Source: Dehalococcoidia bacterium (GTDB taxonomy: Bacteria > Chloroflexota > Dehalococcoidia > Lucifugimonadales > JAGWBF01). Taken from it: DNA of 64,000 nucleotides. The notes below the pieces were generated by a model, which searched no databases, was not told where the DNA came from, and was given only the letters and a program-made list of their open reading frames with translations. The translations under genes were made by a program, and so were the position numbers. Positions within the stretch are counted from its first letter, which is position 1. The number at the start of each line of letters is the position of its first letter. The stretch spans positions 2,665,931-2,729,930 of the forward strand of contig OZ253489.1 in assembly GCA_965261965.1 (NCBI GenBank), read 5' to 3'. Shown here piece after piece: positions 15,450 to 56,400 of this stretch.

Positions 15450-15693
15450 GTTGTCGTTACTCCCGTGCTTGATTACCCAATTCGTATATACTCTTTATCC
15501 AGCGTTTTAGTCAATAAGATACCGCGGGCGTAGCTGTTCAGTTTCTGTGAGTTGAACGTTGAGGGCCTCCCCGGAACGTCGGTCCGAACGCAACATCAGC
15601 GCCCGAAATGTCATGCCGAACCCAATTCTGCCGATGCGACAACCCGACCTTCCACCAACCTCAACACTTGATGTAGAATGACAGGTGCCCATT

Positions 15694-17289
15694 GAGTTTG
15701 TCTCATAGACCGGTGGGCGGGTTGAGTAACACAGGTGTGGGAGCGATGCGCCTCAACAGAGGTTGGCCCGTCCAGTTGCACCGGCCACTTGTCGGCCCCC
15801 AGAAAGGTCGTCTACTCTCTTAGTTCCATGGCGCCTTGACCCAGTCCCAAGGCGCTTGGCCGCTGCGCCATAGCTTGAGCAAGTTATGGGTCGTCCCTGC
15901 CAGCGACCACTCACTCTGTGCAGCGCCCAACCCCCGTCTCATAAACCGTCGGAACCCCTGGCCTTCCTTGACCTGTCCGAACACCGGCTCCACCAGTACA
16001 CCCCGCTTCTTGTACAGAGCTCGGCCTCGCTTTGTCAGCAGCTTGCGCTCCATCCTGTCCCTCGGGCTCAGTCCTTTTGGTATACGCCCTCGGGGACACC
16101 CCTTCTCCCATAGCAGCTTCCGCTGTTTCCAATCCTTGGTGGTGGCAATAAGAAGCTCAGGCATCTCTGGCCAGGGGCAAGCCCTGATGTTGGCCTCACT
16201 CCAGTACCCGGCATCGGCCAAGCCCGCTTTGGGCCGGTCCTCTATGCCGGCTGCTTCCAGAGTATGCGCCATGGTTTGGAGCATCGGCTCCAGTTGCTGC
16301 ACATCGTTGGCCTCTTGGGTCACTCCAACGGCTACTATGATCTGCTCCTCGCTCACCACCGCCTGGGCATTGTAGCCCTGCACGTACCCTTGCCTGGTCT
16401 TCATGATACGACTGTCCGGGTCGGTGGTATTAGCCTTCGCCCCTTCGGTAGGAAGTGGCTCTACCACCTTGGGCTTTCGCCCTCGCTTCTTTTTGCCTGT
16501 GACATCTTCTTCTGCCCGCCGTCGCTCCACGTGCTCTTGGACAGCCTTGGCTCCTGCTTCAGCCTCCCGCTGCAGACGTTCCTTGGCTTCCTTCAGGCGC
16601 TTGAGCCGCTCCGTCCGTCCCCCTAGCCCTTCCGGTAGCTCATCCCCTCGCCGGTCGGGACCATAATGGGCATCCTCTTCAGCATCCGTTGCCTTGGCCT
16701 CTGCCAACATGCGCCGCACTTCTTCTTCAATGGCCTGGTGGCTCCGGTTGGTGGCCAGGGCCGCGTTGGCTGCCACCTTCGTCCCATCAAGAGCCACTAC
16801 CCCCAACTTCACCAGACCCGCTTCATGGCATAACCTCAGTACCTCTACAAAGAGCTCCTCGAACGCCTCCTCGCGCTCCGCCCTAAAGCGACAGATGGTA
16901 CGGAAGTCTGGCTGCCGGTTGGCCGCCACCACCCGGAATCCTACATCTTCCTCCAGAGCACGGGCTATGCGCCTGGAACTGCGTACACCCAGGCAGTAGC
17001 CGTACAACAGGATGGCCACCATCATCCCCGGATCGTAGGCCGCTGCACCCCATCCATCACTTCGATAGACTGCATAGAACTCCCTCAGATCCATCTGGCC
17101 TACTGCATCTACAATGAACCAAGCCAAGTGACCCTCACTCAGCCAATCCCTCATGGACGGCGGCATCAAGTAGCTCTGGTCTCGCTCGCAACTCAGAAGG
17201 TTATAAGCCATAGTGTCCTACCTGCCTGATGTTTCTATGAGCTTACTGCTTCGCCAACCCCGCAGGAAGGGGGTTTATGGGACACGCTC
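15694..17289 (-). mobile_element. IS1182-family insertion sequence, apparently intact (1,596 bp)
   Basis: Terminal IRs GAGTTTGTCTCATAGACC (15694-) and revcomp GAGCGTGTCCCATAAACC (-17289) match 14/18. Direct repeat CATT at 15690-15693 and 17290-17293. Confidence 0.9.
15820..17211 (-). CDS. IS1182-family DDE transposase
   Basis: YDPGMMVAILLYGY...SSRRI, PDFRTICRFR, ALDGTKV, NTTDPDSRIMK, GYNAQ, ADAGY, VEPVFGQVK. Confidence 0.93.
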   Translation of the reverse strand: MAYNLLSCERDQSYLMPPSMRDWLSEGHLAWFIVDAVGQMDLREFYAVYRSDGWGAAAYDPGMMVAILLYGYCLGVRSSRRIARALEEDVGFRVVAANRQPDFRTICRFRAEREEAFEELFVEVLRLCHEAGLVKLGVVALDGTKVAANAALATNRSHQAIEEEVRRMLAEAKATDAEEDAHYGPDRRGDELPEGLGGRTERLKRLKEAKERLQREAEAGAKAVQEHVERRRAEEDVTGKKKRGRKPKVVEPLPTEGAKANTTDPDSRIMKTRQGYVQGYNAQAVVSEEQIIVAVGVTQEANDVQQLEPMLQTMAHTLEAAGIEDRPKAGLADAGYWSEANIRACPWPEMPELLIATTKDWKQRKLLWEKGCPRGRIPKGLSPRDRMERKLLTKRGRALYKKRGVLVEPVFGQVKEGQGFRRFMRRGLGAAQSEWSLAGTTHNLLKLWRSGQAPWDWVKAPWN

Positions 17290-21033: not shown

Positions 21034-21534
21034 CTACAAACTACGAGGAGATGAAAGGAGATAATCGGCGACCTTTAGAAGGTCCTCCCGATCTTGGCTG
21101 GTCGGTTCAAATCGTCTGTCCACCTGCAATGTCCAACCCTGAAACTCTTTGGCATAGCTACGAACATCCAAGTTGCGGATCCTCTTTGGTAGTTCTTTTA
21201 TTGTTTGGTCGCTGGAGAGGGTATAGGCGAGTCCGGCGCCATGATCATTACCTCTCCAGATCACATCGACCACCTTTCCAAACAACGGAAAAGACTTTTT
21301 TCTGACGGTCTTGATCCTGACAGCTTGGGTATACGATACCGATTTGTCGTCCGGTATGTGAAGAACAACCCACCACATGGGTCCGCTATGTTTCGACCCG
21401 TCTTGTCTGAGGATGTTCACCCAACTGATAGGCCCTTCCGGTATGTCTATTATTCCCAAGGAACGTGTGCGCCACGACGTTTGTATTTGTTCTTCGAGCC
21501 GCTCACGTTCACTCATTTCTGCTGCTATACCCAA
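21034..21534 (-). CDS. Hypothetical protein
   Basis: 166-aa ORF with protein-like composition; frame stays open to about 21610 with no clear ATG; no recognised motif. Confidence 0.5.
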   Translation of the reverse strand: MGIAAEMSERERLEEQIQTSWRTRSLGIIDIPEGPISWVNILRQDGSKHSGPMWWVVLHIPDDKSVSYTQAVRIKTVRKKSFPLFGKVVDVIWRGNDHGAGLAYTLSSDQTIKELPKRIRNLDVRSYAKEFQGWTLQVDRRFEPTSQDREDLLKVADYLLSSPRSL

Positions 21535-21759
21535 CGATTTCAGGGCGTCGGTTAGGCGATCCCTTGTTTTGTCACGCAGTGCTTCTTTGATCGGATGCCT
21601 CCCGTGCAGCTTCTATCGACAGGTGCTTCCAAGCCCCCATCAGGGCACAACGATACCATGACCTTAGGCCAATTTAAAGGTAATTAAGCGGTCGAACCCG
21701 TTCGGAGTCGCGGTCGAAACCCTTCGGAGTTGGTGAAAAATGCAGCGACCCGCCCTCCC

Positions 21760-23650
21760 CCATCGTCATCCTGCCTCCCCCCTCCCCCCTCCAGTCGTCC
21801 TTCTGAGCATCCCCCCCTTACTGTCCTTCTGAGCACTCCCCCTTCCCCCATCGTCATCCTGCGGCCTACCTCCCCCCTCCAGTCGTCCTTCTGAGCACCC
21901 CCCCTTATTGTCATCCTGAGGAGTGCCTCCCCTCCCTGTCATTCTGAGTCGCGCACGCCGAAGAATCTAAAATCCTTGCCCACACACCGGGTCGTCGTAG
22001 GAACGGACCAAGACTTACTGCCAGCATCTTAGATTCCTCACTCCGTTCGGAATGACAAAATAGGGGGTTCGGAATGGCAGTGAGGAGTTTTGAATCACAT
22101 TGGGAGGAGGGCATCTCGTCGTTGTCATTCCAACGAGCACCTCCCTCACGTCATTCTGAGGCGCACCCCCCTTACTGTCATTCTGAGGAGTGCCTCCGTT
22201 ATCGTCATTCTGAGGAGCCCTCCCCTCACTATCATTCTGAGGGGTGCTCCCCCCTGTCATTCTGAGGAGCGCACGACGAAGAATCTAAAATGCCTGCTCA
22301 CCCTATGGCTCATCCTAGTAACGAACTGGCCATCAGAGGGAAATTTTAGATTCCTCACTGCGGTTCGGAATGACAGTAGGGAGGTTCAGAATGACACTAG
22401 GGGGTTCGGAATGACATTGGGAGCGTTCGGAATGGCAACCTGAGGGGCACCCCCCCTCATTGTCATTCCGAGAGGTGCGCCGGCCCGTCATTCTGAGGGG
22501 CCCCCCTGTCATTCTGAGGGGCCCCCTCCCTTACTGTCATTCTGAGGCGCGCCCCTCCCTCCCTGTCATTCTGAGGAGCGCACGACGAAGAATCTAAAAT
22601 CCTTGTCCACACGCTGGGTCGTCGTAGGAACGGACCAAGACTTAGTGCCATCATCTTAGATTCCTCACTCCGTTCGGAATGACAAAGCAGGGGGGTTCGG
22701 AATGACAACGTGGGGGGTTCGGAATGACAATGGGGGATTCGGAATGACGCCCCCCTTACTGTCATTCTGAGGGGCGCGCCTCCCTCCCTGTCATTCTGAG
22801 GCGCGCCCCTCCCTCCCTGTCATTCTGAGGAGCGCACGACGAAGAATCTAAAATCCTTGTCCACACGCTGGGTTGTCGTAGGAATGGACTAAGACTTAGT
22901 GCGGGCATCTTAGATTCCTCACTCCGTTCGGAATGACAAAGCAGGGGGGTTCGGAATGACAATGGGGGATTCGGAATGACGCCCCCCTTATTGTCATTCT
23001 GAGGCGCCCCCTCCCTCCCTGTCATTCTGAGGCGCGCGCCTCCCTCCCTGTCATTCTGAGGAGTGCCTCCCCCCCTGTTATTCTGAGGAGTGCCTCCACC
23101 CTGTCATTCTGAGGAGCGCACGACGAAGAATCTAAGGTCCTTGCCCGCACACTGGGTTGTCCAAAAATGGGCTGGCCCCACCGGTGGGCCGTAGATTCCT
23201 CACTCCGTTCGGAATGACAAAGTAGGGGCGTTCGGAATGACGCCTCCCTCCCTGTCATTCTGAGGAGTGCCTCCCTCTCTGTCATTCTGAGGAGTGCCTC
23301 CCTCTCTGTCATTCTGAGGAGTGCCTCCCCCATTGTCATTCTGAGGAGCGCCTCCCTCTCTGTCATTCTGAGGAGTGCCTCCTCCATTGTCATTCTGAGG
23401 AGCGCCTCCCTTATTGTCATTCTGAGGAGCGCCTCCCTTATTGTCATTCTGAGGCGCGCACGCCGAAAAATCTAAGATGCATGTACACACGCCGGGTAGT
23501 CGTAGGAATGGACCAAGACTTAGCGCAGGCATCTTAGATTCCTCACTCCGTTCGGAATGACAGCATGGAGCGTTCGGAATGACAGCAGGGAGCGTTCGGA
23601 ATGACAGCAGGGAGCGTTCGGAATGGAAGCAGGGAGTGTTCGGGATGACG
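21760..23650. repeat. Hierarchical palindromic (REP/REPIN-like) repeat array
   Basis: Six modules of the form GTCATTCTGAGGAGCGCACGACGAAGAATCTA-spacer-TAGATTCCTCACTCCGTTCGGAATGAC at 21938-22056, 22256-22374, 22565-22683, 22819-22937, 23103-23218 and 23443-23561. They are separated by ~27-bp tandem GTCATTCTGAGG units and ~21-22-bp tandem TTCGGAATGAC units. Confidence 0.92.
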
Positions 23651-23786
23651 GTAGGGGGTACGGGACTGCCATTTGGGGAGGGGGTACGGGACGGGCATTT
23701 GGGAAGGCCGTCAAGATCCAACTCATGGAGACTGAAGGTTCAACTCATGGAGACTCAGCAGTTACCGGGAAGCTGAGGGACGGGAG

Positions 23787-25535
23787 TTACCGGGAAGCCG
23801 AGGGAGGGGCTTCGGGCCGCGTCCGGCGCCCGTTAAGCAGCGTACCCAATGGCGTGTAGCGAACGCCCCACTGGTACAGGACCAGCAGCAGAGCTGTGAC
23901 CATGATGCAGATGAAAGCAAGTTTCACAGCCGCGGGCGCCTCCCAGTTCCGTACCATGTGCTGCATCAATACAATCAGCGGCAGGTGCGCCAGGTATAGC
24001 CAGTAAGAAGAATCTGAAATGTAACGGACCACGTAGCTGCCGCTCTCCAGGAGCGCTCGAAACAACCCCATCAGCCCAAAGATCATGCACCAAGGAAATG
24101 CAGCTTGAAGGACGACCGCCGGGACCCTGATTATCCATTGGCCGGCGGGGCTATCTTGCAGGGCGCCGAAATCCCCGTACACGAGCCACATACCTAACGG
24201 GAAGATGACCAGCAGCCCCAAGGGAAGCCAAATCCGCCACCACCGGCTCAGGTGCTGCCCACCCTCCTTATGCGCGAAATACACTGCGCCGAAGGCGAAG
24301 AAGACAGCATGGTAAAGCAGGATGTGTGGAATCGGTATAGGTCCTACCGATGTGTCCGGCCCAAAGATCGGAGAACTCCCTTCCAACCCCATGAACCACT
24401 GGAGGCAAGCTGTTATGGGAATCAACCAAAGGAGGTTCGCGGGTGAAAGCGCCAGCCAGCCGGGCAGGCGCGGGCTGCTCCATGAGAACCTATCCGCAGC
24501 CCAAGCGTAGATGGCAAACCCACCCACAAGCCACACCAAGAACCAGAGGAACCACAGATGATGAAAGATGGATGTGTGGAAGAAGTTGAACCTGCCCGCC
24601 TTTTCAGGATCTGTGCCGGTGGAGATGGTGAAAGCATCCGAGTAGATGGTCTCCCAATACCAAGGAGCCAGCGTCAAGGGTTCCTGTTCCCGGTTCCCGG
24701 TTGGGTCTCCGAACTCGGCCCCTTGGGCGGTGAGAAGCTCCGCCACAGCTTTCCTTCCTTCTTGAATGGCTCTTTTGTCGAATTCCAGCCCCAGAACCCC
24801 CGCCAAGTATTCTGTAACTCCCAAATCGACAGAACTGCTGTCCAAGGGCGTCTGGCTGTCCGCATTCGCGGCATTTGGGTCCGCGCCGTTGCGCAGCAGC
24901 AGATCGGCGCCATCAACGCTGCCCATGAATGCCGCCGCATGCAATGCTGTTCCACCATCCTTGTTCTTGGCGCCCACATCGGCGCCGTTCTCAAGGAGCA
25001 GGCCGATCATTTCGGCGTGGCCCGCAGGCGCCGCCCAAGACAGAGGTGTGGCCCCGAAGATACGGTCCTGCTCATTGATGTCCGCACCATCGGCCAAGTA
25101 AGCTTCGATGGCTTCCCCGTCATTGGCCTTCGCTGCTGTCCAGATGTTGTCCCCGGCTGCATCCGTGACGACGTAGGCGACCACAATGTTCATTATGGGT
25201 AAGATGGTAAACAAAGCTATGACCAAGGGCGCCAGCACACGGGTGGACCGCTGTTTGATCAGTGCCGGTAGACCCCTTTTTTGCCACAACATAGCCGTAA
25301 AGAACCCGCTCATCATGAAGAATACGGGCATTCGAAAGCCGTGTATTGCCGCCACCAGCAAGCCGAGCAGATCATCTTGCTTCTGGTCCTGTACCGGCCA
25401 CCACCCCGTTGTGAAGGATAGTGCCCCATGCAGGACGATGCCGAGCAGCATCGCAAGCCCGCGCATGGCATCAAGATCGTGCCTTCGCGCGATGCTTTGA
25501 AGCTCGACCTCAGCCCCGCTTTCTAAACTGGTCAT
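23787..25535 (-). CDS. Acyltransferase-3 (OpgC/MdoC-like) membrane protein with inserted ankyrin repeats
   Basis: RRHDLDAMR, IVLH, IHGFRMPVFF, HHLWFLWFL and YISDSSYWLYLAH, interrupted by GADIN/GATPLSWAA, GADVG/GGTALHAAA and GADPN/QTPLD ankyrin repeats. Confidence 0.88.
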   Translation of the reverse strand: MTSLESGAEVELQSIARRHDLDAMRGLAMLLGIVLHGALSFTTGWWPVQDQKQDDLLGLLVAAIHGFRMPVFFMMSGFFTAMLWQKRGLPALIKQRSTRVLAPLVIALFTILPIMNIVVAYVVTDAAGDNIWTAAKANDGEAIEAYLADGADINEQDRIFGATPLSWAAPAGHAEMIGLLLENGADVGAKNKDGGTALHAAAFMGSVDGADLLLRNGADPNAANADSQTPLDSSSVDLGVTEYLAGVLGLEFDKRAIQEGRKAVAELLTAQGAEFGDPTGNREQEPLTLAPWYWETIYSDAFTISTGTDPEKAGRFNFFHTSIFHHLWFLWFLVWLVGGFAIYAWAADRFSWSSPRLPGWLALSPANLLWLIPITACLQWFMGLEGSSPIFGPDTSVGPIPIPHILLYHAVFFAFGAVYFAHKEGGQHLSRWWRIWLPLGLLVIFPLGMWLVYGDFGALQDSPAGQWIIRVPAVVLQAAFPWCMIFGLMGLFRALLESGSYVVRYISDSSYWLYLAHLPLIVLMQHMVRNWEAPAAVKLAFICIMVTALLLVLYQWGVRYTPLGTLLNGRRTRPEAPPSASR

Positions 25536-25943
25536 ATTGACGCTGGTCTCTTCATCCGATTGCCCAACTCCATAGTTGCAATGGGTCCTTTGTGGATTGT
25601 CGGCTCCCGTATCGAAATCCGCGGCTGGCAGGTTCCGGCACATGCACATGCGTTAGCTGTGGCGGTCGAAGATCATTTGACCAAGGAACCGCTTCAGAAT
25701 ATGCTTGCTTTCTCAACAGGGCAAGAAATACGTTCCAAGATAGCTGGCCAGCGTCCTCGTCGAGTTGATCGCCATCCATCATCATGCCGCAACTTCACAA
25801 GTTACTTTCAGGGCTGAATGTACTGCCATTTCACCCCTTTTCATCTCTCGCTTTGTCCAGCCCAACTATGCTAAGACGACTGCGCAACGTTCTGGGAACG
25901 ACCAAGGCCCTACGTTGCCAATCAAAGCCAGGAGGACGGTAAA

Positions 25944-44460: not shown

Positions 44461-47400
44461 CTAGCGCCAGCGCCGCAGCCTCCGCAGCCGGCGGGCCATC
44501 AGGATTATGATGATAATGGCTATGAGGAGCCAGAACGGCCAGCCCAGACGCACCCCTTCATCAGGGCTTTGAGGCGCTAAATCTGATGGGGCCGCGGCGG
44601 ACGGCACATCCGCAGTAGCCGTAGGACTGGGTTTGGGAGGAGCGGTGGCTGCCAGCACAGGTACGGCCGTCAGTGTCGGCGTGGGAGTTTCGTTGCCGCC
44701 TTGGTCCGGTGGTTGCGTTGGCGCCGGCTTAGCTATCGGCACAATGGCACTATGGCGTGGCGTGGCGATGGCTGGCGCTGACCAGTCGCTGGGGCCGACG
44801 ACATTGACCGCCCTCACCCAGAAGTGGCACTCAACGCCGTTGGTCAGGCCGCCGATGCTCAGAGTGGTCGCGGCGTCAGCAGTGCCCGAGATCATCGCCG
44901 CCGCCCTGAAGTTGCTGTCGGTTGAGTATTCAACGGTGTAGTGCGTAATGCGGGAGTTGCCGTGGTTCGCGGGAGCAGTCCAGCTCAATTCCACCTGGCC
45001 GTCGCCCGGAGCCGCCGTAAGTTCCGTGGGCGCTCCGGGTATCGCGTCGTTGTCGGTTACCGTTATTGATGCCGAGCTGCCGGGCGCCCTCACCCGGTAA
45101 TTGTTCCGCGCCTGAAGTGTGGCGGTAATGTCTTCGTTCGGCTCGTCCACGGTATCGTCTATGGTAGCCATGCTGAGCCTTGCGGTGTCCGCGCCGGCGG
45201 CGAGTCGCACCGTTTTATTGCCGGACACGGTGGTGAAGTTCGCGCCGCCGGAGACACGGACCGTCACGGCGAGGGCAGCGCTTGGCGCAGGACTGGCGGT
45301 GATAATGAAGTTGGCGTCGCTCCCCTCAGTGATCGGGGAGGTATCCGCCGCGATGGATATGGCTGGCGTCCAGTTGTCGCCACCGCCGGGCGGTCGGCTG
45401 TCGTCGTCGGCGACGGTCACCGCCACCCCGGCGACGCTCACGGCGTCGTACTCGTCGGCGCTCCGGGAGGCGTCGACGGCGTGGGTGATGGAGGCCGCGT
45501 CGTTCACCGCGTCGGCGTCCTGGGCGGCCCGCACCGTCACCGTCTGCGCCGTGTCCCAGTTGGACGAGGTGAAGGTCAGGGTGGCCGGCGACACCGTCAC
45601 GTCGCTGCTGCCGCTCCTGGTTACGCCGATCACCACGTTGGAGGCGGGCTGGGCGTCCAGGACCACCGTGTAGGTGGAACTGTTGCCCTCAGCAACCGTC
45701 AGCGTGGTTTCGGACACGCTCACCCCGGCGTCGTCGTCGGCCACCGTGACCGCCACCCCGGCGACGCTCACGGCGTCGTACTCGTCGGCGCTCCGGGAGG
45801 CGTCGACGGCGTGGGTGATGGACGCCGCGTCGTTCACCGCATCGGCGTCCTGGGCGGCCCGCACCGTCACCGTCTGCGCCGTGTCCCAGTTGGACGGGCT
45901 GAAGGTCAGGGTGGCCGGCGACACCGTCACGTCGCTGCTGCCGCTGATGGTTACGCCGATCACCACGTTGGAGGCGGGCTGGGCGTCCAGGACCACCGTG
46001 TAGGTGGAACTGTTGCCCTCAGCAACCGTCAGCGTGGTTTCGGACACGCTCACCCCGGCGTCGTCGTCGGCCACCGTGACCGCCACCCCGGCGACGCTCA
46101 CGGCGTCGTACTCGTCGGCGCTCCGGGAGGCGTCGACGGCGTGGGTGATGGAGGCCGCGTCGTTCACCGCGTCGGCGTCCTGGGCGGCCCGCACCGTCAC
46201 CGTCTGCGCCGTGTCCCAGTTGGACGGGCTGAAGGTCAGGGTGGCCGGCGACACCGTCACGTCGCTGCTGCCGCTCCTGGTTACGCCGATCACCACGTTG
46301 GAGGCGGGCTGGGCGTCCAGGACCACCGTGTAGGTGGAACTGTTGCCCTCAGCAACCGTCAGCGTGGTTTCGGACACGCTCACCCCGGCGTCGTCGTCGG
46401 CCACCGTGACCGCCACCCCGGCGACGCTCACGGCGTCGTACTCGTCGGCGCTCCGGGAGGCGTCGACGGCGTGGGTGATGGAGGCCGCGTCGTTCACCGC
46501 GTCGGCGTCCTGGGCGGCCCGCACCGTCACCGTCTGCGCCGTGTCCCAGTTGGACGGGCTGAAGGTCAGCGTGGCCCGGTCCACCGTCACGTCGCTGCTG
46601 CCGCTCCTGGTTACGCCGATCACCACGTTGGAGGCGGGCTGGGCGTCCAGGACCACCGTGTAGGTGGAACTGTTGCCCTCAGCAACCGTCAGCGTGGTTT
46701 CGGACACGCTCACCCCGGCGTCGTCGTCGGCCACCGTGACCGCCACCCCGGCGACGCTCACGGCGTCGTACTCGTCGGCGCTGCTGGCGGCCACCACCGC
46801 GTGGGTGATGGAGGCCGCGTCGTTCACCGCGTCGGCGTCCTGGGCGGCCCGCACCGTCACCGTCTGCGCCGTGTCCCAGTTGGACGGGCTGAAGGTCAGG
46901 GTGGCCGGCGACACCGTCACGTCGCTGCTGCCGCTCCTGGTTACGCCGATCACCACGTTGGAGGCGGGCTGGGCGTCCAGGACCACCGTGTAGGTGGAAC
47001 TGTTGCCCTCAGCAACCGTCAGCGTGGTTTCGGACACGCTCACCCCGGCGTCGTCGTCGGCCACCGTGACCGCCACCCCGGCGACGCTCACGGCGTCGTA
47101 CTCGTCGGCGCTGCTGGCGGCCACCACCGCGTGGGTGATGGAGGCCGCGTCGTTCACCGCGTCGGCGTCCTGGGCGGCCCGCACCGTCACCGTCTGCGCC
47201 GTGTCCCAGTTGGACGGGCTGAAGGTCAGGGTGGCCGGCGACACCGTCACGTCGCTGCTGCCGCTCCTGGTTACGCCGATCACCACGTTGGAGGCGGGCT
47301 GGGCGTCCAGGACCACCGTGTAGGTGGAACTGTTGCCCTCAGCAACCGTCAGCGTGGTTTCGGACACGCTCACCCCGGCGGTATCGTCGTCGGCCACCGT

Positions 47401-50400
47401 GACCGCCACCCCGGCGACGCTCACGTTGTCGAACTCGTCGGCGCTGCTGGCGGCCACCACCGCGTGGGTGGTGGAGGCCGCGTCGTTCACCGCGTCGGCG
47501 TCCTGGGCGGCCCGCACCGTCACCGTCTGGGCCGTGTCCCAGTTGGACGGGCTGAAGGTCAGGGTGGCCGGCGACACCGTCACGTCGCTGCTGCCGCTCC
47601 TGGTTACGCCGATCACCACGTTGGAGGCGGGCTGGGCGTCCAGGACCACCGTGTAGGTGGAACTGTTGCCCTCAGCAACCGTCAGCGTGGTTTCGGACAC
47701 GCTCACCCCGGCGTCGTCGTCGGCCACCGTGACCGCCACCCCGGCGACGCTCACGGCGTCGTACTCGTCGGCGCTGCTGGCGGCCACCACCGCGTGGGTG
47801 GTGGAGGCCGCGTCGTTCACCGCGTCGGCGTCCTGGGCGGCCCGCACCGTCACCGTCTGCGCCGTGTCCCAGTTGGACGGGCTGAAGGTCAGGGTGGCCG
47901 GCGACACCGTCACGTCGCTGCTGCCGCTCCTGGTTACGCCGATCACCACGTTGGAGGCGGGCTGGGCGTCCAGGACCACCGTGTAGGTGGAACTGTTGCC
48001 CTCAGCAACCGTCAGCGTGGTTTCGGACACGCTCACCCCGGCGTCGTCGTCGGCCACCGTGACCGCCACCCCGGCGACGCTCACGTTGTCGTACTCGTCG
48101 GCGCTGCTGGCGGCCACCACCGCGTGGGTGGTGGAGGCCGCGTCGTTCACCGCGTCGGCGTCCTGGGCGGCCCGCACCGTCACCGTCTGCGCCGTGTCCC
48201 AGTTGGACGGGCTGAAGGTCAGGGTGGCCGGCGACACCGTCACGTCGCTGCTGCCGCTCCTGGTTACGCCGATCACCACGTTGGAGGCGGGCTGGGCGTC
48301 CAGGACCACCGTGTAGGTGGAACTGTTGCCCTCAGCAACCGTCAGCGTGGTTTCGGACACGCTCACCCCGGCGTCGTCGTCGGCCACCGTGACCGCCACC
48401 CCGGCGACGCTCACGTTGTCGAACTCGTCGGCGCTGCTGGCGGCCACCACCGCGTGGGTGGTGGAGGCCGCGTCGTTCACCGCGTCGGCGTCCTGGGCGG
48501 CCCGCACCGTCACCGTCTGGGCCGTGTCCCAGTTGGACGAGGTGAAGGTCAGAGTGGTCTGGTTGCCGGACGTCGCGGCGTCGGTGTCCGCCGTCACGTC
48601 CGAATTGTCGCTGCTCACCGTGATCACCACGTTGGAGGCGGGCTGGGCGTCCAGGACCACCGTGTAGGTGGAACTGTTGCCCTCAGCAACCGTCAGCGTG
48701 GTTTCGGACACGCTCACCCCGGCGTCGTCGTCGGCCACCGTGACCGCCACCCCGGCGACGCTCACGTTGTCGAACTCGTCGGCGCTGCTGGCGGCCACCA
48801 CCGCGTGGGTGGTGGAGGCCGCGTCGTTCACCGCGTCGGCGTCCTGGGCGGCCCGCACCGTCACCGTCTGGGCCGTGTCCCAGTTGGACGGGCTGAAGGT
48901 CAGGGTGGCCGGCGACACCGTCACGTCGCTGCTGCCGCTCCTGGTTACGCCGATCACCACGTTGGAGGCGGGCTGGGCGTCCAGGACCACCGTGTAGGTG
49001 GAACTGTTGCCCTCAGCAACCGTCAGCGTGGTTTCGGACACGCTCACCCCGGCGGTATCGTCGTCGGCCACCGTGACCGCCACCCCGGCGACGCTCACGT
49101 TGTCGAACTCGTCGGCGCTGCTGGCGGCCACCACCGCGTGGGTGGTGGAGGCCGCGTCGTTCACCGCGTCGGCGTCCTGGGCGGCCCGCACCGTCACCGT
49201 CTGGGCCGTGTCCCAGTTGGACGGGCTGAAGGTCAGGGTGGCCGGCGACACCGTCACGTCGCTGCTGCCGCTCCTGGTTACGCCGATCACCACGTTGGAG
49301 GCGGGCTGGGCGTCCAGGACCACCGTGTAGGTGGAACTGTTGCCCTCAGCAACCGTCAGCGTGGTTTCGGACACGCTCACCCCGGCGTCGTCGTCGGCCA
49401 CCGTGACCGCCACCCCGGCGACGCTCACGTTGTCGAACTCGTCGGCGCTGCTGGCGGCCACCACCGCGTGGGTGATGGAGGCCGCGTCGTTCACCGCGTC
49501 GGCGTCCTGGGCGGCCCGCACCGTCACCGTCTGCGCCGTGTCCCAGTTGGACGGGCTGAAGGTCAGGGTGGCCGGCGACACCGTCACGTCGCTGCTGCCG
49601 CTCCTGGTTACGCCGATCACCACGTTGGAGGCGGGCTGGGCGTCCAGGACCACCGTGTAGGTGGAACTGTTGCCCTCAGCAACCGTCAGCGTGGTTTCGG
49701 ACACGCTCACCCCGGCGTCGTCGTCGGCCACCGTGACCGCCACCCCGGCGACGCTCACGGCGTCGTACTCGTCGGCGCTGCTGGCGGCCACCACCGCGTG
49801 GGTGGTGGAGGCCGCGTCGTTCACCGCGTCGGCGTCCTGGGCGGCCCGCACCGTCACCGTCTGCGCCGTGTCCCAGTTGGACGGGCTGAAGGTCAGGGTG
49901 GCCGGCGACACCGTCACGTCGCTGCTGCCGCTCCTGGTTACGCCGATCACCACGTTGGAGGCGGGCTGGGCGTCCAGGACCACCGTGTAGGTGGAACTGT
50001 TGCCCTCAGCAACCGTCAGCGTGGTTTCGGACACGCTCACCCCGGCGTCGTCGTCGGCCACCGTGACCGCCACCCCGGCGACGCTCACGGCGTCGTACTC
50101 GTCGGCGCTCCGGGAGGCGTCGACGGCGTGGGTGATGGAGGCCGCGTCGTTCACCGCGTCGGCGTCCTGGGCGGCCCGCACCGTCACCGTCTGCGCCGTG
50201 TCCCAGTTGGACGGGCTGAAGGTCAGCGTGGCCCGGTCCACCGTCACGTCGGGGCTGCCGCTCCTGGTTACGCCGATCACCACGTTGGAGGCGGGCTGGG
50301 CGTCCAGGACCACCGTGTAGGTGGAACTGTTGCCCTCAGCAACCGTCAGCGTGGTTTCGGACACGCTCACCCCGGCGGTATCGTCGTCGGCCACCGTGAC

Positions 50401-53400
50401 CGCCACCCCGGCGACGCTCACGTTGTCGAACTCGTCGGCGCTGCTGGCGGCCACCACCGCGTGGGTGGTGGAGGCCGCGTCGTTCACCGCGTCGGCGTCC
50501 TGGGCGGCCCGCACCGTCACCGTCTGGGCCGTGTCCCAGTTGGACGGGCTGAAGGTCAGGGTGGCCGGCGACACCGTCACGTCGCTGCTGCCGCTCCTGG
50601 TTACGCCGATCACCACGTTGGAGGCGGGCTGGGCGTCCAGGACCACCGTGTAGGTGGAACTGTTGCCCTCAGCAACCGTCAGCGTGGTTTCGGACACGCT
50701 CACCCCGGCGTCGTCGTCGGCCACCGTGACCGCCACCCCGGCGACGCTCACGTTGTCGAACTCGTCGGCGCTGCTGGCGGCCACCACCGCGTGGGTGGTG
50801 GAGGCCGCGTCGTTCACCGCGTCGGCGTCCTGGGCGGCCCGCACCGTCACCGTCTGCGCCGTGTCCCAGTTGGACGGGCTGAAGGTCAGGGTGGCCGGCG
50901 ACACCGTCACGTCGCTGCTGCCGCTCCTGGTTACGCCGATCACCACGTTGGAGGCGGGCTGGGCGTCCAGGACCACCGTGTAGGTGGAACTGTTGCCCTC
51001 AGCAACCGTCAGCGTGGTTTCGGACACGCTCACCCCGGCGGTATCGTCGTCGGCCACCGTGACCGCCACCCCGGCGACGCTCACGGCGTCGTACTCGTCG
51101 GCGCTCCGGGAGGCGTCGACGGCGTGGGTGATGGAGGCCGCGTCGTTCACCGCGTCGGCGTCCTGGGCGGCCCGCACCGTCACCGTCTGCGCCGTGTCCC
51201 AGTTGGACGGGCTGAAGGTCAGGGTGGCCGGCGACACCGTCACGTCGCTGCTGCCGCTCCTGGTTACGCCGATCACCACGTTGGAGGCGGGCTGGGCGTC
51301 CAGGACCACCGTGTAGGTGGAACTGTTGCCCTCAGCAACCGTCAGCGTGGTTTCGGACACGCTCACCCCGGCGTCGTCGTCGGCCACCGTGACCGCCACC
51401 CCGGCGACGCTCACGTTGTCGAACTCGTCGGCGCTGCTGGCGGCCACCACCGCGTGGGTGGTGGAGGCCGCGTCGTTCACCGCGTCGGCGTCCTGGGCGG
51501 CCCGCACCGTCACCGTCTGGGCCGTGTCCCAGTTGGACGGGCTGAAGGTCAGGGTGGCCGGCGACACCGTCACGTCGCTGCTGCCGCTCCTGGTTACGCC
51601 GATCACCACGTTGGAGGCGGGCTGGGCGTCCAGGACCACCGTGTAGGTGGAACTGTTGCCCTCAGCAACCGTCAGCGTGGTTTCGGACACGCTCACCCCG
51701 GCGTCGTCGTCGGCCACCGTGACCGCCACCCCGGCGACGCTCACGGCGTCGTACTCGTCGGCGCTCCGGGAGGCGTCGACGGCGTGGGTGATGGAGGCCG
51801 CGTCGTTCACCGCGTCGGCGTCCTGGGCGGCCCGCACCGTCACCGTCTGCGCCGTGTCCCAGTTGGACGGGCTGAAGGTCAGCGTGGCCCGGTCCACCGT
51901 CACGTCGGGGCTGCCGCTGATGGTTACGCCGATCACCACGTTGGAGGCGGGCTGGGCGTCCAGGACCACCGTGTAGGTGGAACTGTTGCCCTCAGCAACC
52001 GTCAGCGTGGTTTCGGACACGCTCACCCCGGCGTCGTCGTCGGCCACCGTGACCGCCACCCCGGCGACGCTCACGGCGTCGTACTCGTCGGCGCTCCGGG
52101 AGGCGTCGACGGCGTGGGTGATGGAGGCCGCGTCGTTCACCGCGTCGGCGTCCTGGGCGGCCCGCACCGTCACCGTCTGCGCCGTGTCCCAGTTGGACGG
52201 GCTGAAGGTCAGCGTGGCCCGGTCCACCGTCACGTCGCTGCTGCCGCTCCTGGTTACGCCGATCACCACGTTGGAGGCGGGCTGGGCGTCCAGGACCACC
52301 GTGTAGGTGGAACTGTTGCCCTCAGCAACCGTCAGCGTGGTTTCGGACACGCTCACCCCGGCGGTATCGTCGTCGGCCACCGTGACCGCCACCCCGGCGA
52401 CGCTCACGTTGTCGAACTCGTCGGCGCTCCGGGAGGCGTCGACGGCGTGGGTGATGGAGGCCGCGTCGTTCACCGCGTCGGCGTCCTGGGCGGCCCGCAC
52501 CGTCACCGTCTGCGCCGTGTCCCAGTTGGACGGGCTGAAGGTCAGGGTGGCCGGCGACACCGTCACGTCGCTGCTGCCGCTCCTGGTTACGCCGATCACC
52601 ACGTTGGAGGCGGGCTGGGCGTCCAGGACCACCGTGTAGGTGGAACTGTTGCCCTCAGCAACCGTCAGCGTGGTTTCGGACACGCTCACCCCGGCGGTAT
52701 CGTCGTCGGCCACCGTGACCGCCACCCCGGCGACGCTCACGGCGTCGTACTCGTCGGCGCTCCGGGAGGCGTCGACGGCGTGGGTGATGGAGGCCGCGTC
52801 GTTCACCGCGTCGGCGTCCTGGGCGGCGGACACCGTCACCGTCTGCGCCGTGTCCCAGTTGGACGGGCTGAAGGTCAGGGTGGCCGGCGACACCGTCACG
52901 TCGCTGCTGCCGCTCCTGGTTACGCCGATCACCACGTTGGAGGCGGGCTGGGCGTCCAGGACCACCGTGTAGGTGGAACTGTTGCCCTCAGCAACCGTCA
53001 GCGTGGTTTCGGACACGCTCACCCCGGCGTCGTCGTCGGCCACCGTGACCGCCACCCCGGCGACGCTCACGGCGTCGTACTCGTCGGCGCTCCGGGAGGC
53101 GTCGACGGCGTGGGTGATGGAGGCCGCGTCGTTCACCGCGTCGGCGTCCTGGGCGGCCCGCACCGTCACCGTCTGCGCCGTGTCCCAGTTGGACGGGCTG
53201 AAGGTCAGGGTGGCCGGCGACACCGTCACGTCGGGGCTGCCGCTGATGGTTACGCCGATCACCACGTTGGAGGCGGGCTGGGCGTCCAGGACCACCGTGT
53301 AGGTGGAACTGTTGCCCTCAGCAACCGTCAGCGTGGTTTCGGACACGCTCACCCCGGCGTCGTCGTCGGCCACCGTGACCGCCACCCCGGCGACGCTCAC

Positions 53401-56400
53401 GTTGTCGAACTCGTCGGCGCTGCTGGCGGCCACCACCGCGTGGGTGGTGGAGGCCGCGTCGTTCACCGCGTCGGCGTCCTGGGCGGCCCGCACCGTCACC
53501 GTCTGCGCCGTGTCCCAGTTGGACGGGCTGAAGGTCAGGGTGGCCGGCGACACCGTCACGTCGCTGCTGCCGCTCCTGGTTACGCCGATCACCACGTTGG
53601 AGGCGGGCTGGGCGTCCAGGACCACCGTGTAGGTGGAACTGTTGCCCTCAGCAACCGTCAGCGTGGTTTCGGACACGCTCACCCCGGCGTCGTCGTCGGC
53701 CACCGTGACCGCCACCCCGGCGACGCTCACGTTGTCGAACTCGTCGGCGCTCCGGGAGGCGTCGACGGCGTGGGTGATGGAGGCCGCGTCGTTCACCGCG
53801 TCGGCGTCCTGGGCGGCCCGCACCGTCACCGTCTGCGCCGTGTCCCAGTTGGACGGGCTGAAGGTCAGGGTGGCCGGCGACACCGTCACGTCGCTGCTGC
53901 CGCTGATGGTTACGCCGATCACCACGTTGGAGGCGGGCTGGGCGTCCAGGACCACCGTGTAGGTGGAACTGTTGCCCTCAGCAACCGTCAGCGTGGTTTC
54001 GGACACGCTCACCCCGGCGTCGTCGTCGGCCACCGTGACCGCCACCCCGGCGACGCTCACGGCGTCGTACTCGTCGGCGCTCCGGGAGGCGTCGACGGCG
54101 TGGGTGATGGAGGCCGCGTCGTTCACCGCGTCGGCGTCCTGGGCGGCCCGCACCGTCACCGTCTGGGCCGTGTCCCAGTTGGACGGGCTGAAGGTCAGGG
54201 TGGCCGGCGACACCGTCACGTCGCTGCTGCCGCTCCTGGTTACGCCGATCACCACGTTGGAGGCGGGCTGGGCGTCCAGGACCACCGTGTAGGTGGAACT
54301 GTTGCCCTCAGCAACCGTCAGCGTGGTTTCGGACACGCTCACCCCGGCGGTATCGTCGTCGGCCACCGTGACCGCCACCCCGGCGACGCTCACGGCGTCG
54401 TACTCGTCGGCGCTCCGGGAGGCGTCGACGGCGTGGGTGATGGAGGCCGCGTCGTTCACCGCGTCGGCGTCCTGGGCGGCCCGCACCGTCACCGTCTGCG
54501 CCGTGTCCCAGTTGGACGGGCTGAAGGTCAGGGTGGCCGGCGACACCGTCACGTCGCTGCTGCCGCTCCTGGTTACGCCGATCACCACGTTGGAGGCGGG
54601 CTGGGCGTCCAGGACCACCGTGTAGGTGGAACTGTTGCCCTCAGCAACCGTCAGCGTGGTTTCGGACACGCTCACCCCGGCGTCGTCGTCGGCCACCGTG
54701 ACCGCCACCCCGGCGACGCTCACGGCGTCGTACTCGTCGGCGCTCCGGGAGGCGTCGACGGCGTGGGTGATGGACGCCGCGTCGTTCACCGCATCGGCGT
54801 CCTGGGCGGCCCGCACCGTCACCGTCTGCGCCGTGTCCCAGTTGGACGGGCTGAAGGTCAGGGTGGCCGGCGACACCGTCACGTCGGGGCTGCCGCTGAT
54901 GGTTACGCCGATCACCACGTTGGAGGCGGGCTGGGCGTCCAGGACCACCGTGTAGGTGGAACTGTTGCCCTCAGCAACCGTCAGCGTGGTTTCGGACACG
55001 CTCACCCCGGCGTCGTCGTCGGCCACCGTGACCGCCACCCCGGCGACGCTCACGGCGTCGTACTCGTCGGCGCTCCGGGAGGCGTCGACGGCGTGGGTGA
55101 TGGAGGCCGCGTCGTTCACCGCGTCGGCGTCCTGGGCGGCCCGCACCGTCACCGTCTGCGCCGTGTCCCAGTTGGACGGGCTGAAGGTCAGCGTGGCCCG
55201 GTCCACCGTCACGTCGCTGCTGCCGCTCCTGGTTACGCCGATCACCACGTTGGAGGCGGGCTGGGCGTCCAGGACCACCGTGTAGGTGGAACTGTTGCCC
55301 TCAGCAACCGTCAGCGTGGTTTCGGACACGCTCACCCCGGCGTCGTCGTCGGCCACCGTGACCGCCACCCCGGCGACGCTCACGGCGTCGTACTCGTCGG
55401 CGCTGCTGGCGGCCACCACCGCGTGGGTGGTGGAGGCCGCGTCGTTCACCGCGTCGGCGTCCTGGGCGGCCCGCACCGTCACCGTCTGCGCCGTGTCCCA
55501 GTTGGACGAGGTGAAGGTCAGAGTGGTCTGGTTGCCGGACGTCGCGGCGTCGGTGTCCGCCGTCACGTCCGAATTGTCGCTGCTCACCGTGATCACCACG
55601 TTGGAGGCGGGCTGGGCGTCCAGGACCACCGTGTAGGTGGAACTGTTGCCCTCAGCAACCGTCAGCGTGGTTTCGGACACGCTCACCCCGGCGTCGTCGT
55701 CGGCCACCGTGACCGCCACCCCGGCGACGCTCACGTTGTCGAACTCGTCGGCGCTGCTGGCGGCCACCACCGCGTGGGTGGTGGAGGCCGCGTCGTTCAC
55801 CGCGTCGGCGTCCTGGGCGGCCCGCACCGTCACCGTCTGGGCCGTGTCCCAGTTGGACGGGCTGAAGGTCAGGGTGGCCGGCGACACCGTCACGTCGCTG
55901 CTGCCGCTCCTGGTTACGCCGATCACCACGTTGGAGGCGGGCTGGGCGTCCAGGACCACCGTGTAGGTGGAACTGTTGCCCTCAGCAACCGTCAGCGTGG
56001 TTTCGGACACGCTCACCCCGGCGTCGTCGTCGGCCACCGTGACCGCCACCCCGGCGACGCTCACGTTGTCGTACTCGTCGGCGCTGCTGGCGGCCACCAC
56101 CGCGTGGGTGATGGAGGCCGCGTCGTTCACCGCGTCGGCGTCCTGGGCGGCCCGCACCGTCACCGTCTGCGCCGTGTCCCAGTTGGACGGGCTGAAGGTC
56201 AGGGTGGCCGGCGACACCGTCACGTCGCTGCTGCCGCTCCTGGTTACGCCGATCACCACGTTGGAGGCGGGCTGGGCGTCCAGGACCACCGTGTAGGTGG
56301 AACTGTTGCCCTCAGCAACCGTCAGCGTGGTTTCGGACACGCTCACCCCGGCGTCGTCGTCGGCCACCGTGACCGCCACCCCGGCGACGCTCACGGCGTC

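Follow-up and report, generated by a model that had tools for sequence, protein, structure and literature searches.

A runaway array of hairpin doublets in a Dehalococcoidia genome, probably of the repeat family of an Ssn-type GIY-YIG nuclease

The window, as we call the whole stretch of 64,000 nucleotides of Dehalococcoidia DNA that was analysed, contains six hairpin doublets at positions 21756-23707, between two minus-strand ORFs that lie outside the element. Reading and alignment of the modules gave a length of 119 bp for M1-M4 and M6 and of 116 bp for M5, each with inward-facing arms, as the initial annotation had described. The left arm common to all six modules is GTCATTCTGAG..GAAGAATCTAA, and the right arm is TAGATTCC..GTTCGGAATGAC. 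Every module is preceded on its 5' side by 26-29-bp copies of its own left outer half and followed on its 3' side by 20-22-bp copies of the right outer half. Tandem Repeats Finder assigned a period of 26-29 to the left-end runs (for example 23242-23454, period 27, 7.9 copies, 90% matches) and of 20-22 to the right-end runs (for example 23549-23656, period 22, 4.9 copies), in agreement with the tandem copies of ~27 bp and ~21-22 bp reported previously around the modules. The decay noticed at both outer edges of the array was located at 21756-21937 and 23606-23707. The features are as follows.

21034-21534, - strand: left flanking ORF, outside the element; 166 aa, no Pfam family, conserved in same-genus genomes
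21756-21937, + strand: decayed left edge, with degenerate left-outer-half copies (GTCCTTCTGAG, GTCATCCTG and others) in a C-rich spacer; 88-bp higher-order repeat
21938-22056, + strand: M1, 119-bp doublet; 33-nt left arm, core, 28-nt right arm
22057-22100, + strand: right-half units 3' of M1; GTTCGGAATGGC plus one decayed copy
22123-22255, + strand: left-half units 5' of M2; period 26-27, ~5 copies
22256-22374, + strand: M2, 119 bp; core of the type dominant genome-wide
22375-22436, + strand: right-half units 3' of M2; period 21, 3 copies
22462-22564, + strand: left-half units 5' of M3; periods 21-29, 4 copies
22565-22683, + strand: M3, 119 bp (alignment)
22684-22748, + strand: right-half units 3' of M3; period 20-22, 3 copies
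22761-22818, + strand: left-half units 5' of M4; period 29, 2 copies
22819-22937, + strand: M4, 119 bp, near copy of M3 (alignment)
22938-22980, + strand: right-half units 3' of M4; 2 copies
22993-23102, + strand: left-half units 5' of M5; period 27, 4 copies
23103-23218, + strand: M5, 116 bp, right half of the core divergent (alignment)
23219-23241, + strand: right-half unit 3' of M5; single copy
23242-23442, + strand: left-half units 5' of M6; period 27, 7 copies, with a GAGG..CCTC mini-palindrome in each
23443-23561, + strand: M6, 119 bp (alignment)
23562-23707, + strand: right-half units 3' of M6; period 22, decaying outward into a 26-bp repeat
23787-25649, - strand: right flanking ORF, outside the element; 620 aa, Acyl_transf_3 plus ankyrin repeats

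Allowing for 1 mismatch, GTCATTCTGAG has 32 occurrences in the 64-kb window where 1.0 would be expected, and GTTCGGAATGAC has 20 where 0.3 would be expected, the sole match to either of them outside the array stretch being at 15610-15621, with one mismatch. Alignment of the cores confirmed that of M5 as divergent in its right half. The M2 core had been taken for an unrelated sequence, but it is the genome's dominant type and shares conserved positions with the other module cores. Unique inner pieces of the array were recovered at single-copy depth, with 0-1 differences, in short-read contigs of runs from two studies, and the DNA of the array is therefore real. As 0 contigs spanned the array in the four short-read contig sets compared, the evidence for its exact module order and copy numbers is the assembly itself. 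Synteny with same-genus genomes is interrupted at the array. Integron attC sites have the core sites R'' (RYYYAAC) and R' (GTTRRRY), with gene cassettes between sites; an attC or CALIN assignment was rejected, since the right end GTTCGGA has a C where R is needed and there are no ORFs between the modules.

Genome-wide, ~1,150 doublets and ~6,500 TGTC-tagged half-sites were counted, and 225 intergenic arrays occupy 278,022 bp, or 8.1% of the 3.4-Mb genome. Tokens (2,547 left-half units, 1,668 right-half units, 1,154 left arms and 1,146 right arms, in total ~4,200 half-units and ~2,300 full arms) are ordered in the 225 arrays as (l...l A-core-B r...r)n, with up to 12 modules in the largest. Of 962 regex matches, 743 have a module length of 118-120 bp and 736 a core length of 59-60 nt, so that the conservation of core length suspected from the window holds across the genome. 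When up to 3 mismatches are allowed, the 33-nt left arm has 1,030 occurrences in this genome and 0 in 40 relatives, and the TGTC variant TGTCATTCYGAR makes up 4,218 of the 5,036 GTCATTCYGAR copies. A second repeat family of the same genome has the canonical hairpin CGTCATTCCCGCGAAGGCGGGAAC, almost the Neisseria NTS. Arrays lie in divergent gaps in 29% of cases compared to 18% in the background, with no other gene-arrangement preference; their orientation is independent of that of neighbouring genes (35 vs 35; 26 vs 22). No replication-arm bias of the arrays was found, the GC skew being weak.

In each arm a TGTC tag is followed by an 8-position stem (ATTCYGAR/YGARGAAT) that contains two neighbouring G.A pairs and encloses a loop; the tail is CTA(A). 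The arm reads TGTC-ATTCYGAR..YGARGAAT-C, with a C directly after the palindrome. The left arm folds on the + strand and has a loop of 10 nt. The right arm folds on the - strand, as ATTCCGAA / CGGAG / TGAGGAAT, with 8 stem positions, 2 of them G.A, and a 5-nt loop. Of 736 modules, 653 have T..A at arm positions 8/25, 72 have C..G and 11 are discordant. In other species, sampled at 118 loci in many phyla, pair 8:25 was concordant in 125 of 127 exact arms. The G.A-stem hairpin recurs letter for letter in many phyla. Judged by this covarying pair in the sequences, each arm is its own hairpin. Stems are near-invariant, with loops and 59-60-nt cores drifting; in recent neighbour duplicates (n=444) the arms differ at ~2% of sites, the variable ones being those of the loop, and the cores at 6.7%.

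The inverted doublet folds as one hairpin, both as RNA and as DNA (whole-module z down to -4.5). Another explanation is that the modules are units of structured or processed small RNAs, one hairpin RNA per module, as had also been suggested from the sequence. In its favour, whole-module RNA folds scored better than shuffles on either strand, with z from -1.35 to -4.5 and below -2 in 5 of 6 folds, and the inter-arm T:G and G:T pairs would be wobble pairs on the + strand. Against this, chimeric modules folded as well as real ones (-47.8 and -46.4 kcal/mol, respectively), from which it follows that the cores lack compensatory change. Mutual information in the cores revealed subfamilies only, in gapped and ungapped alignments, and RNAalifold confined the pairs of the modules to the arms. 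There is also an A:C mismatch in the inner stem on the + strand, and array orientation is indifferent to the adjacent genes. Rfam searches of the window (gathering threshold), of the array (E up to 10) and of the relatives' loci (E up to 0.1) returned only sub-threshold miRNA-like hairpins, with no family at any threshold tried. Moreover, published SsnA did not bind RNA (PMC11893778). Processed RNAs are thus a very improbable explanation of the array.

The initial annotation had supposed that any enzyme involved acts in trans, and had proposed to look for RAYT and GIY-YIG genes in the genome. RAYT (PF01797) was absent from this genome and its 40 relatives (0 of 41), the model detecting it in 6 of 14 control genomes. 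A population of REPINs mobilised by a RAYT (Y1 HUH), or of miniature elements of a resident insertion sequence, would account for fixed-spacing inverted doublets and tandem clusters, which are those described for REPINs (PMC3116915). We find it barely credible in this genome, given the lack of RAYT, the presence of TnpB in only 3 of 41 genomes, the lack of correlation between IS110 and the motif (27 matches and 0 motifs in relative G007; 0 matches and 78 motifs in G035), and an IS1380-like element whose inverted ends (CCCGAATCCACCGA) are unrelated to the arms. The latter element only inserts into modules, at CTAAG-like sites. Two reverse transcriptases were discarded as array enzymes, both being in array-free regions; genes in short inter-array gaps and multi-copy families were likewise discarded, as they are ordinary genes, IS66, IS1182-like and IS1595 elements and serine recombinases.

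When all six-frame ORFs were searched with a profile, the genome gave 1 match (E 3e-41), a single-copy gene at C1:1879815-1880132 on the minus strand, for a 106-aa protein with PF01541 GIY-YIG as its only domain (E 4.7e-13). This putative Ssn-type gene is located 808 kb from the window array, inside array C1:1878373-1881613, in the position of a module core and between inverted arms of the same kind, supporting that the enzyme acts in trans and answering the proposed co-occurrence check positively. The ATG of the gene follows 8 nt after the end of a tagged hairpin, and the stop codon is overlapped by an inverted hairpin of the left-arm type. NCBIfam models did not match the 106-aa protein, and the closest solved structures, UPF0213 proteins, were weak matches (E 0.0045), which counts against the assignment to an Ssn-type enzyme. 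Homologues form at least 1,259 clusters, named 'GIY-YIG nuclease family protein' or 'putative endonuclease'. Many of them are on contigs <1 kb, consistent with short-read assemblies breaking at arrays, and because of such breaks expansions of this kind may be under-reported in metagenome-assembled genomes. Descent of the doublet from the gene unit by deletion was not supported, since the cores have no significant likeness to the nuclease gene (core-gene alignment scores within shuffles in this genome, G000, and in G013 and G018).

The link between the gene and the hairpins extends to other genomes; the ORF cut-off in the search for hairpin-linked genes was 60 aa. Upstream of the gene, a (C/T)GTCAT-tagged hairpin was present at all 12 loci compared, one in the own genome and 11 in relatives; an inverted one lay downstream at 11 of the 12, and in both genomes checked (G013 and G018) the gene-flanking variant is the genome's own doublet variant. 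Of 13 more distant paralogues, among them those of same-genus genomes without the TGTC variant, 7 are flanked on either side by canonical CGTC hairpins. In a phylum sample, the best inverted repeat of the gene flanks reached at least 15 matches in 15 of 28 loci compared to 1 of 85 control ORFs, and carried a GTCRT tag in 20 of 28. The gene is present in 35 of 59 genomes with arm-like hairpins and in 33 of 341 without them (odds ratio 13.6), a figure that comes from a hand count over related genomes that are not independent. Conversely, with this query a close homologue was absent from three motif-rich relatives, G020 (closed, 50 motifs), G025 (57) and G017 (46).

Enzymes of this kind, among them SsnA of Neisseria meningitidis, were described by Chenal et al. 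(Nat Commun 2025, PMC11893778) as Ssn, single-domain GIY-YIG nucleases of ~94 aa in the cd10448 clade. In Neisseria and the three other species tested, the enzyme binds its hairpin as ssDNA only, on one strand, and cuts a few nt upstream, with no activity reported there on dsDNA or RNA; for four Ssn proteins, cleavage next to the cognate hairpin was demonstrated. Transformation of Neisseria by NTS-gene-NTS DNA is lowered by SsnA. That paper left open by what means the repeats are multiplied and which role they have outside Neisseria.

Taken together, the array is probably best explained as an intergenic, non-coding hairpin-doublet array belonging to the repeat family of an Ssn-type nuclease and spread by nicking and repair. 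By analogy with the published enzymes (PMC11893778), the nuclease would recognise the arms and nick beside them whenever the DNA becomes single-stranded. Since the two arms fold on opposite strands (left on +, right on -), cuts are predicted just outside both module ends, and in every module the half-hairpin copies sit on this predicted cut side (upstream of the hairpin, on the hairpin strand). Nicks may then be repaired by out-of-register copying or by ectopic recombination, and such repair would keep the stems uniform, duplicate whole modules and let outer half-hairpins accumulate on the cut side, in a process that may have run away in this lineage. The further proposal that the half-hairpin runs are scars of nuclease action, that nick-and-repair multiplies and homogenises NTS, SRM and CGTC repeats in general, and that the G.A-stem hairpin is an overlooked branch of the system, is tentative and rather doubtful at present. 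Several observations weigh on the opposite side of the preferred reading, the motif-rich relatives without a close nuclease homologue among them. Single arms have stabilities of only -0.3 to -2.1 kcal/mol by nearest-neighbour DNA folding, no better than shuffles, and the published SRM pattern misses the left arm, the right arm, both gene-flanking hairpins and the 31-nt pan-phylum arm. Its 241 matches in this genome (36 in a shuffle) fall nearly all in the second, canonical hairpin family.

With respect to the dynamics of the arrays, 681 of 947 modules have their nearest neighbour within their own array, and median core identity is 0.88 between neighbours and 0.49 between arrays, showing that arrays grow mainly via local duplication. 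Between arrays, 67 module pairs are at most 2 core bases apart, and the identity of their flanks falls from ~0.7 in the first 10 nt to 0.25-0.3, near background, by ~50 nt, so the likeness of near-identical modules in different arrays stops at the module borders. A search for empty sites through paralogous flanks was swamped by other repeats. Left and right unit numbers are roughly geometrically distributed and uncorrelated (r 0.06), which counts against the nick-and-repair reading and rules out nested symmetric insertion (L^n R^n). Conveyor-belt growth outward from the module was also rejected, as units scored at up to 1 mismatch showed no divergence gradient by rank. Plain slippage would predict this same picture, no age gradient and uncorrelated unit numbers, and the claim that polarised end amplification points to an enzyme rather than to slippage was consequently not borne out.

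These data are those expected if the arrays were ordinary REP/BIME-like selfish or neutral DNA that spreads and grows solely through host-driven replication slippage, unequal crossing-over and gene conversion, the nuclease locus being merely colonised by repeats or using hairpins as expression signals. The geometric and uncorrelated unit numbers, the missing unit-age gradient, the predominance of local duplication and the motif-rich relatives without a close nuclease homologue all agree with it. However, hairpins of the own variant bracket the gene in G006, G026 and G024 despite only 11-30 motifs in 2-4 Mb, which makes chance colonisation of the gene locus very unlikely. Neither the co-occurrence of gene and hairpin across the phylum, nor the cleavage by four Ssn proteins beside their own hairpins (PMC11893778), nor invariant stems next to drifting loops and cores, even in recent duplicates, fits neutral repeats, and we hold this explanation to be unlikely.

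The arrays could alternatively serve the host, by marking incoming or exposed single strands for cutting, a role that has been suggested in Neisseria transformation, or by acting as recombination platforms between genes. A single-copy nuclease gene, as would be expected of a domesticated one, the effect of SsnA on NTS-gene-NTS transformation in Neisseria (PMC11893778) and a repeat read depth of several-hundred-fold in related strains of all four studies compared speak for such a service. Yet same-genus genomes (three closed, one two-contig) contain one copy or none of the TGTC variant, 8% of a 3.4-Mb genome is a heavy cost for a marker, and there is no gene-arrangement preference except the excess in divergent gaps (29% vs 18%). 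A host-serving system is quite unlikely on this balance.

If the nick-and-repair reading is right, it would supply the missing mechanism for the multiplication, uniformity and mosaics of NTS, SRM and CGTC repeats, with this genome as its runaway state and the G.A-stem hairpin as a large branch of the system. In any case, the genome is a natural extreme, with >1,000 doublets, ~4,200 half-units and one enzyme gene, compared to sister species whose closed genomes are almost devoid of the variant, and half-hairpin runs on the predicted cut side give a concrete, testable model of repeat amplification. The published search pattern undercounts the family, with 241 sites here compared to thousands.

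In Neisseria, NIMEs are formed by dRS3 flanking 50-150-bp RS units, and the proposed resemblance of the array to these RS3/NIME mosaics and to CGTC-type REPs was supported. The CGTC/TGTC-tagged REPs of Di Nocera, De Gregorio & Rocco (2013, PMC3733652) have a CGTC, TGTC or CCTC tag, an 8-9-bp stem starting with AT, a 4-5-nt loop and a CCA tail, and are listed there for five phyla that do not include Chloroflexi. They have in common with the arms an unpaired tag, an 8-position AT-starting stem and a short tail, as well as the formation of inverted dimers, the occurrence in certain species of large clusters between genes and the lack of RAYT; unlike them, the arms described here have a CTA(A) tail, a 10-nt loop in the left arm and G.A pairs in the stem. 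With REPINs (Bertels & Rainey 2011, PMC3116915) the array shares a copied unit of two inverted hairpins with a less conserved spacer of fixed length, tandem clusters that repeat the doublet plus its flanks, and a single-copy enzyme gene flanked by repeats. The enzyme fold is GIY-YIG here and HUH there, the spacers here show no compensatory changes, and the largest REPIN cluster given by Bertels & Rainey has four REPINs, compared to up to 12 modules in our arrays. Literature searches returned the motif strings only as primers in unrelated papers, and nothing relevant on 'GIY-YIG' together with REP terms.

The closest comparison is with Ssn and its SRM hairpins (PMC11893778). Both systems have an oriented hairpin with an (H)GTC tag, an AT stem start and a C immediately behind the palindrome, intergenic copies that number from hundreds to thousands, an own hairpin variant per gene lineage, and a ~100-aa single-domain GIY-YIG gene with inverted repeat copies on both sides. 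The arms of our genome differ in having two adjacent G.A pairs and 5-10-nt loops, outside the SRM pattern; moreover, two inverted arms around a homologous fixed-length core make up the unit, and half-hairpin tandem runs flank each doublet, the whole amounting to 8% of the genome. Symbionts are in excess among the repeat-rich species of that study, whereas the present host is of an uncultured free-living lineage. Doublet length is fixed per genus, at 100-101 bp in 35 of 37 doublets of G012 and at 84-88 bp in 21 of 22 of G018, and in G035 half-hairpin runs lie upstream of single hairpins. The system has been largely in print since 2025 (PMC11893778, as far as those sections go) and is seen here in an unusually expanded, modular form; what is new is a hairpin variant outside the published search pattern, REPIN-like doublets of genus-fixed length, half-hairpin tandem runs on the predicted Ssn cut side and the scale of the expansion.

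The initial annotation had described six palindromic modules of nearly constant length, each flanked by tandem copies of its own ends, and apart from its view of the second core this account proved accurate. The array occupies 21756-23707 of the window and holds six modules (119 bp in five, 116 bp in one), each a hairpin doublet with the following parts and neighbours.

21034-21534, minus strand: left neighbour, an ORF of unknown function
Left arm of each window module, 33 nt: GTCATTCTGAGGAGCGCACGACGAAGAATCTAA
Core of the window modules, 56-60 nt
Right arm of each window module, 28 nt: TTAGATTCCTCACTCCGTTCGGAATGAC
23787-25649, minus strand: right neighbour, an acyltransferase/ankyrin gene

Every module is preceded by two to seven left-half units, in which the left arm's initial ~17 nt are joined to a C-rich spacer (period 26-29), and followed by one to four right-half units, in which the right arm's final ~13 nt are joined to a G-rich spacer (period 20-22). 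The outer edges of the array are decayed. Counts of the two end motifs in the window are 32 and 20, where chance would give ~1 and 0.3, and ORF and family searches of the window found no credible gene within the array. Small tandem repeats with no relation to the arms adjoin both array ends (21688-21730 and 23760-23809; 22 bp x2 and 25 bp x2).

The feature proved genuine and occurs in great numbers. In its own genome (G000), a single contig (C1) of 3,433,791 bp, the left arm occurs 1,030 times at ≤3 mismatches and the 12-mer TGTCATTCYGAR 4,218 times. Arrays number 225, range from 68 to 3,251 bp, hold at most 12 modules each and together take up 278,022 bp (8.1%) of the genome; 16-mers with at least five occurrences cover 15.3% of it. 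The arrays comprise 2,547 left-half units (l), 1,668 right-half units (r), 1,154 left arms (A) and 1,146 right arms (B), in the order (l..l A-core-B r..r)n. Among 962 modules matched by a regular expression, 743 are 118-120 bp long and 736 have a core of 59-60 nt. With 831 distinct sequences among 910, cores vary widely yet share a common consensus, and the core of the second window module, which had been called unrelated to the others, turned out to fit this consensus most closely. In about one tenth of modules the core is flipped relative to the asymmetric arms. Arrays are intergenic and somewhat enriched in divergent gene gaps (29% vs 18% background, with crude gene calls), and no bias was found in their orientation relative to neighbouring genes or along the chromosome. 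Two long array-free stretches, C1:777835-1055571 and 2451902-2553035, hold reverse-transcriptase genes and IS110 copies, and may be recently acquired DNA.

Read on the TGTC strand, an arm consists of the tag TGTC, a stem ATTCYGAR / YGARGAAT enclosing a loop (5 nt in the right arm, 10 nt in the left) and a tail CTAA, the stem comprising five Watson-Crick pairs, two adjacent G.A pairs and one closing pair. Left-arm positions 8 and 25 covary among 736 modules (T..A in 653, C..G in 72, discordant in 11) while their partners in the opposite arm are unchanged, so the conserved pair lies within the arm. Moreover, exact copies of a 31-nt arm version, GTCATTCYGAGGAGCGNAGCGACGARGAATC, were present in at least 118 stretches (L039-L156) from genomes whose names place them in at least ten phyla, including Acidobacteriota, Chloroflexota, Firmicutes, Planctomycetota, Gemmatimonadota and Bacteroidota, and in these 118 stretches 125 of 127 exact arms keep the arm-internal pair concordant. 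The loop region of the 31-nt version contains GCGAAGC, a very stable DNA mini-hairpin. Standard DNA folding energies gave no support for small single-arm hairpins, and the evidence for these putative structures is comparative, not thermodynamic. In the cores no compensatory change was found: joining the left half of one module to the right half of another gives folds no worse than those of real modules.

Arrays grow mainly by local duplication, as median core identity is 0.88 between neighbouring modules vs 0.49 between arrays, and 681 of 947 modules have their nearest relative in their own array. Whole modules are also copied, or else converted, in one piece: in 67 inter-array pairs with ≤2 core-base differences, flanking identity is ~0.7 in the first 10 nt and near background by ~50 nt beyond the module ends. 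In 444 recent duplicates, differences affect ~2% of arm sites, where they fall in loop positions, and 6.7% of core sites.

Same-genus genomes (three closed and one two-contig, 2.4-2.6 Mb) carry 0-1 copy of the 12-mer, which is chance level, and other genera of the family carry 0 to 291. In those genera the repeats form scattered inverted doublets, and each genus has its own fixed doublet length: 100-101 bp in 35/37 doublets of the relative G012, 84-88 bp in 21/22 of G018 and 94-95 bp in 9/14 of those listed for G013. Single hairpins in G035, a closed genome from another family, are preceded by 3-10 half-hairpin units in tandem, each 23-28 bp long; half-hairpin runs are therefore a property of the repeat class, wider than this genome. 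A phylum sample contained arm-like hairpins in 59 of 400 genomes (the unpublished G267 among them), at most ~40 per genome.

As for a partner enzyme, a small ORF lies between or beside the hairpins in 4 of the 118 cross-phylum loci, and all four encode GIY-YIG domains. A profile built from them matched exactly one ORF of the genome (E 3e-41).

C1:1879815-1880132, minus strand: predicted GIY-YIG nuclease gene, 106 aa, 808 kb from the window

This gene sits inside an array, in the position of a module core. A tagged hairpin, with one half-unit ahead of it, ends 8 nt before the ATG, and at the other end an inverted hairpin, whose loop is that of the left arms of this genome, overlaps the stop codon. 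Counting this gene and its closest homologues in 11 relatives, a hairpin is found upstream at 12/12 loci and downstream at 11/12, the variants including GTCATTGCGAG and the canonical CGTCATTCCTGCGGAGGCAGGAATCC; in the two genomes compared, G013 and G018, the gene-flanking variant is that of the genome's own doublets. Paralogues in same-genus genomes without the motif have canonical CGTC hairpins on either side. All 13 relatives with a best nuclease match of E ≤1e-25 (3e-25 to 2e-42) have at least 11 motifs, and none of 15 relatives with ≤2 motifs has such a match; several motif-rich relatives also have none. Across the phylum, inverted repeats with at least 15 matches flank the gene at 15/28 loci vs 1/85 control ORFs. 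Of the enzymes for which co-occurrence had been suggested, GIY-YIG held up, the gene being present in 35/59 hairpin-bearing vs 33/341 hairpin-free genomes (odds ratio 13.6, a hand count over related genomes that are not independent), and RAYT, the Y1 HUH transposase of REPs, was not found, with no PF01797 match in 41 genomes. The distributions of IS110 and TnpB do not follow that of the repeat. Many close nuclease homologues (P0002-P0120) come from short contigs (550-1,000 bp), which fits assembly breaks at flanking repeats, so Ssn-type systems may be under-assembled in metagenomes.

A partnership of this kind is described in the main text of Chenal et al. (Nat Commun 2025, PMC11893778), where genes of the single-domain GIY-YIG family Ssn (CDD cd10448) are flanked by hairpins: the Neisseria NTS CGTCATTCCCGCGMAVGCGGGAATCYRG, an extended dRS3, and related 'SRM' hairpins. 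SsnA binds its hairpin as single-stranded DNA only, and on one strand only; four Ssn homologues cut next to their own hairpins; and a homologue is present in 81% of genomes with >200 SRMs. The anatomy, the stem constraint, the association of gene with repeat, the local duplication and the module-length identity across arrays are established here; the course of events behind them may be envisaged as follows. The left-arm hairpin would form on the plus strand and the right-arm hairpin on the minus strand, so that, given the published Ssn biochemistry, the predicted nuclease would be expected to cut just outside both module ends, on the side of the half-hairpin runs. We propose that DNA is nicked again and again while transiently single-stranded, and that its repair, out of register or at ectopic sites, would homogenise stems, duplicate modules and stack half-hairpins. 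Plain slippage is a fair rival as the source of the arrays, because unit numbers and ages show no polarity: left and right unit numbers around modules are uncorrelated (r 0.06), and no age gradient with distance from the module was seen. A host function, such as the control of incoming single strands proposed for Neisseria (PMC11893778), is also possible.

Modules are a ready target for an IS1380-like element (442-aa transposase, ends CCCGAATCCACCGA), which interrupts five of them, duplicating CTAAG, CTTAG or TTAAG, at the arm-core junction in 4/5.

C1:116034-117859, IS1380-like element in a module
C1:138518-140348, IS1380-like element in a module
C1:2097225-2099179, IS1380-like element in a module
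C1:2117213-2119044, IS1380-like element in a module
C1:2216888-2218719, IS1380-like element in a module

The genome also holds 35 IS66-family and 17 IS1380-like copies, IS1595, several large serine recombinases and Replic_Relax genes. In the window, an insertion sequence at 15692-17289 (32 genomic copies) encodes a 463-aa DDE_Tnp_1/DUF772 transposase (15820-17211, minus), and a giant ORF of 6,227 aa (44461-63144, minus) consists of ~55 tandem 330-bp units at ~94% identity, the opposite strand being likewise open for 5,944 codons (45481-63315).

A second miniature element, of 123 bp, is inserted at the CTAAG junction of modules, giving ~40 long modules of ~242 bp.

C1:207769-208010, example of a long module with the 123-bp element

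Its hairpin, tandemly duplicated as a half in some copies, is nearly identical to NTS, and ~240 copies fit the SRM pattern as published in the main text; a second Ssn-type gene to accompany it was not found in the genome. This family accounts for nearly all of the 241 genomic sites matching that pattern (vs 36 in a shuffle).

In layout the arms match the CGTC-tagged REP superfamily, and Di Nocera et al. found that superfamily to have no dedicated transposase (PMC3733652). Given the published pairing of hairpin repeats with single-domain GIY-YIG genes, the window repeat and its predicted gene are best filed as a variant member of the Ssn/SRM (CGTC-REP, NIME-like) system. Its authors pointed out an IS-like NTS-ssnA-NTS layout and the REP/RAYT parallel, and propose domestication and 'massive expansion' (PMC11893778). 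Four features go beyond that paper's main text: the arms of the modules, the hairpins beside the gene and the 31-nt pan-phylum arm all fail the published SRM pattern; what is copied is an inverted doublet whose core is homologous and of fixed length; the doublets are flanked by tandem runs of half-hairpins; and the expansion has reached the scale found in this genome.
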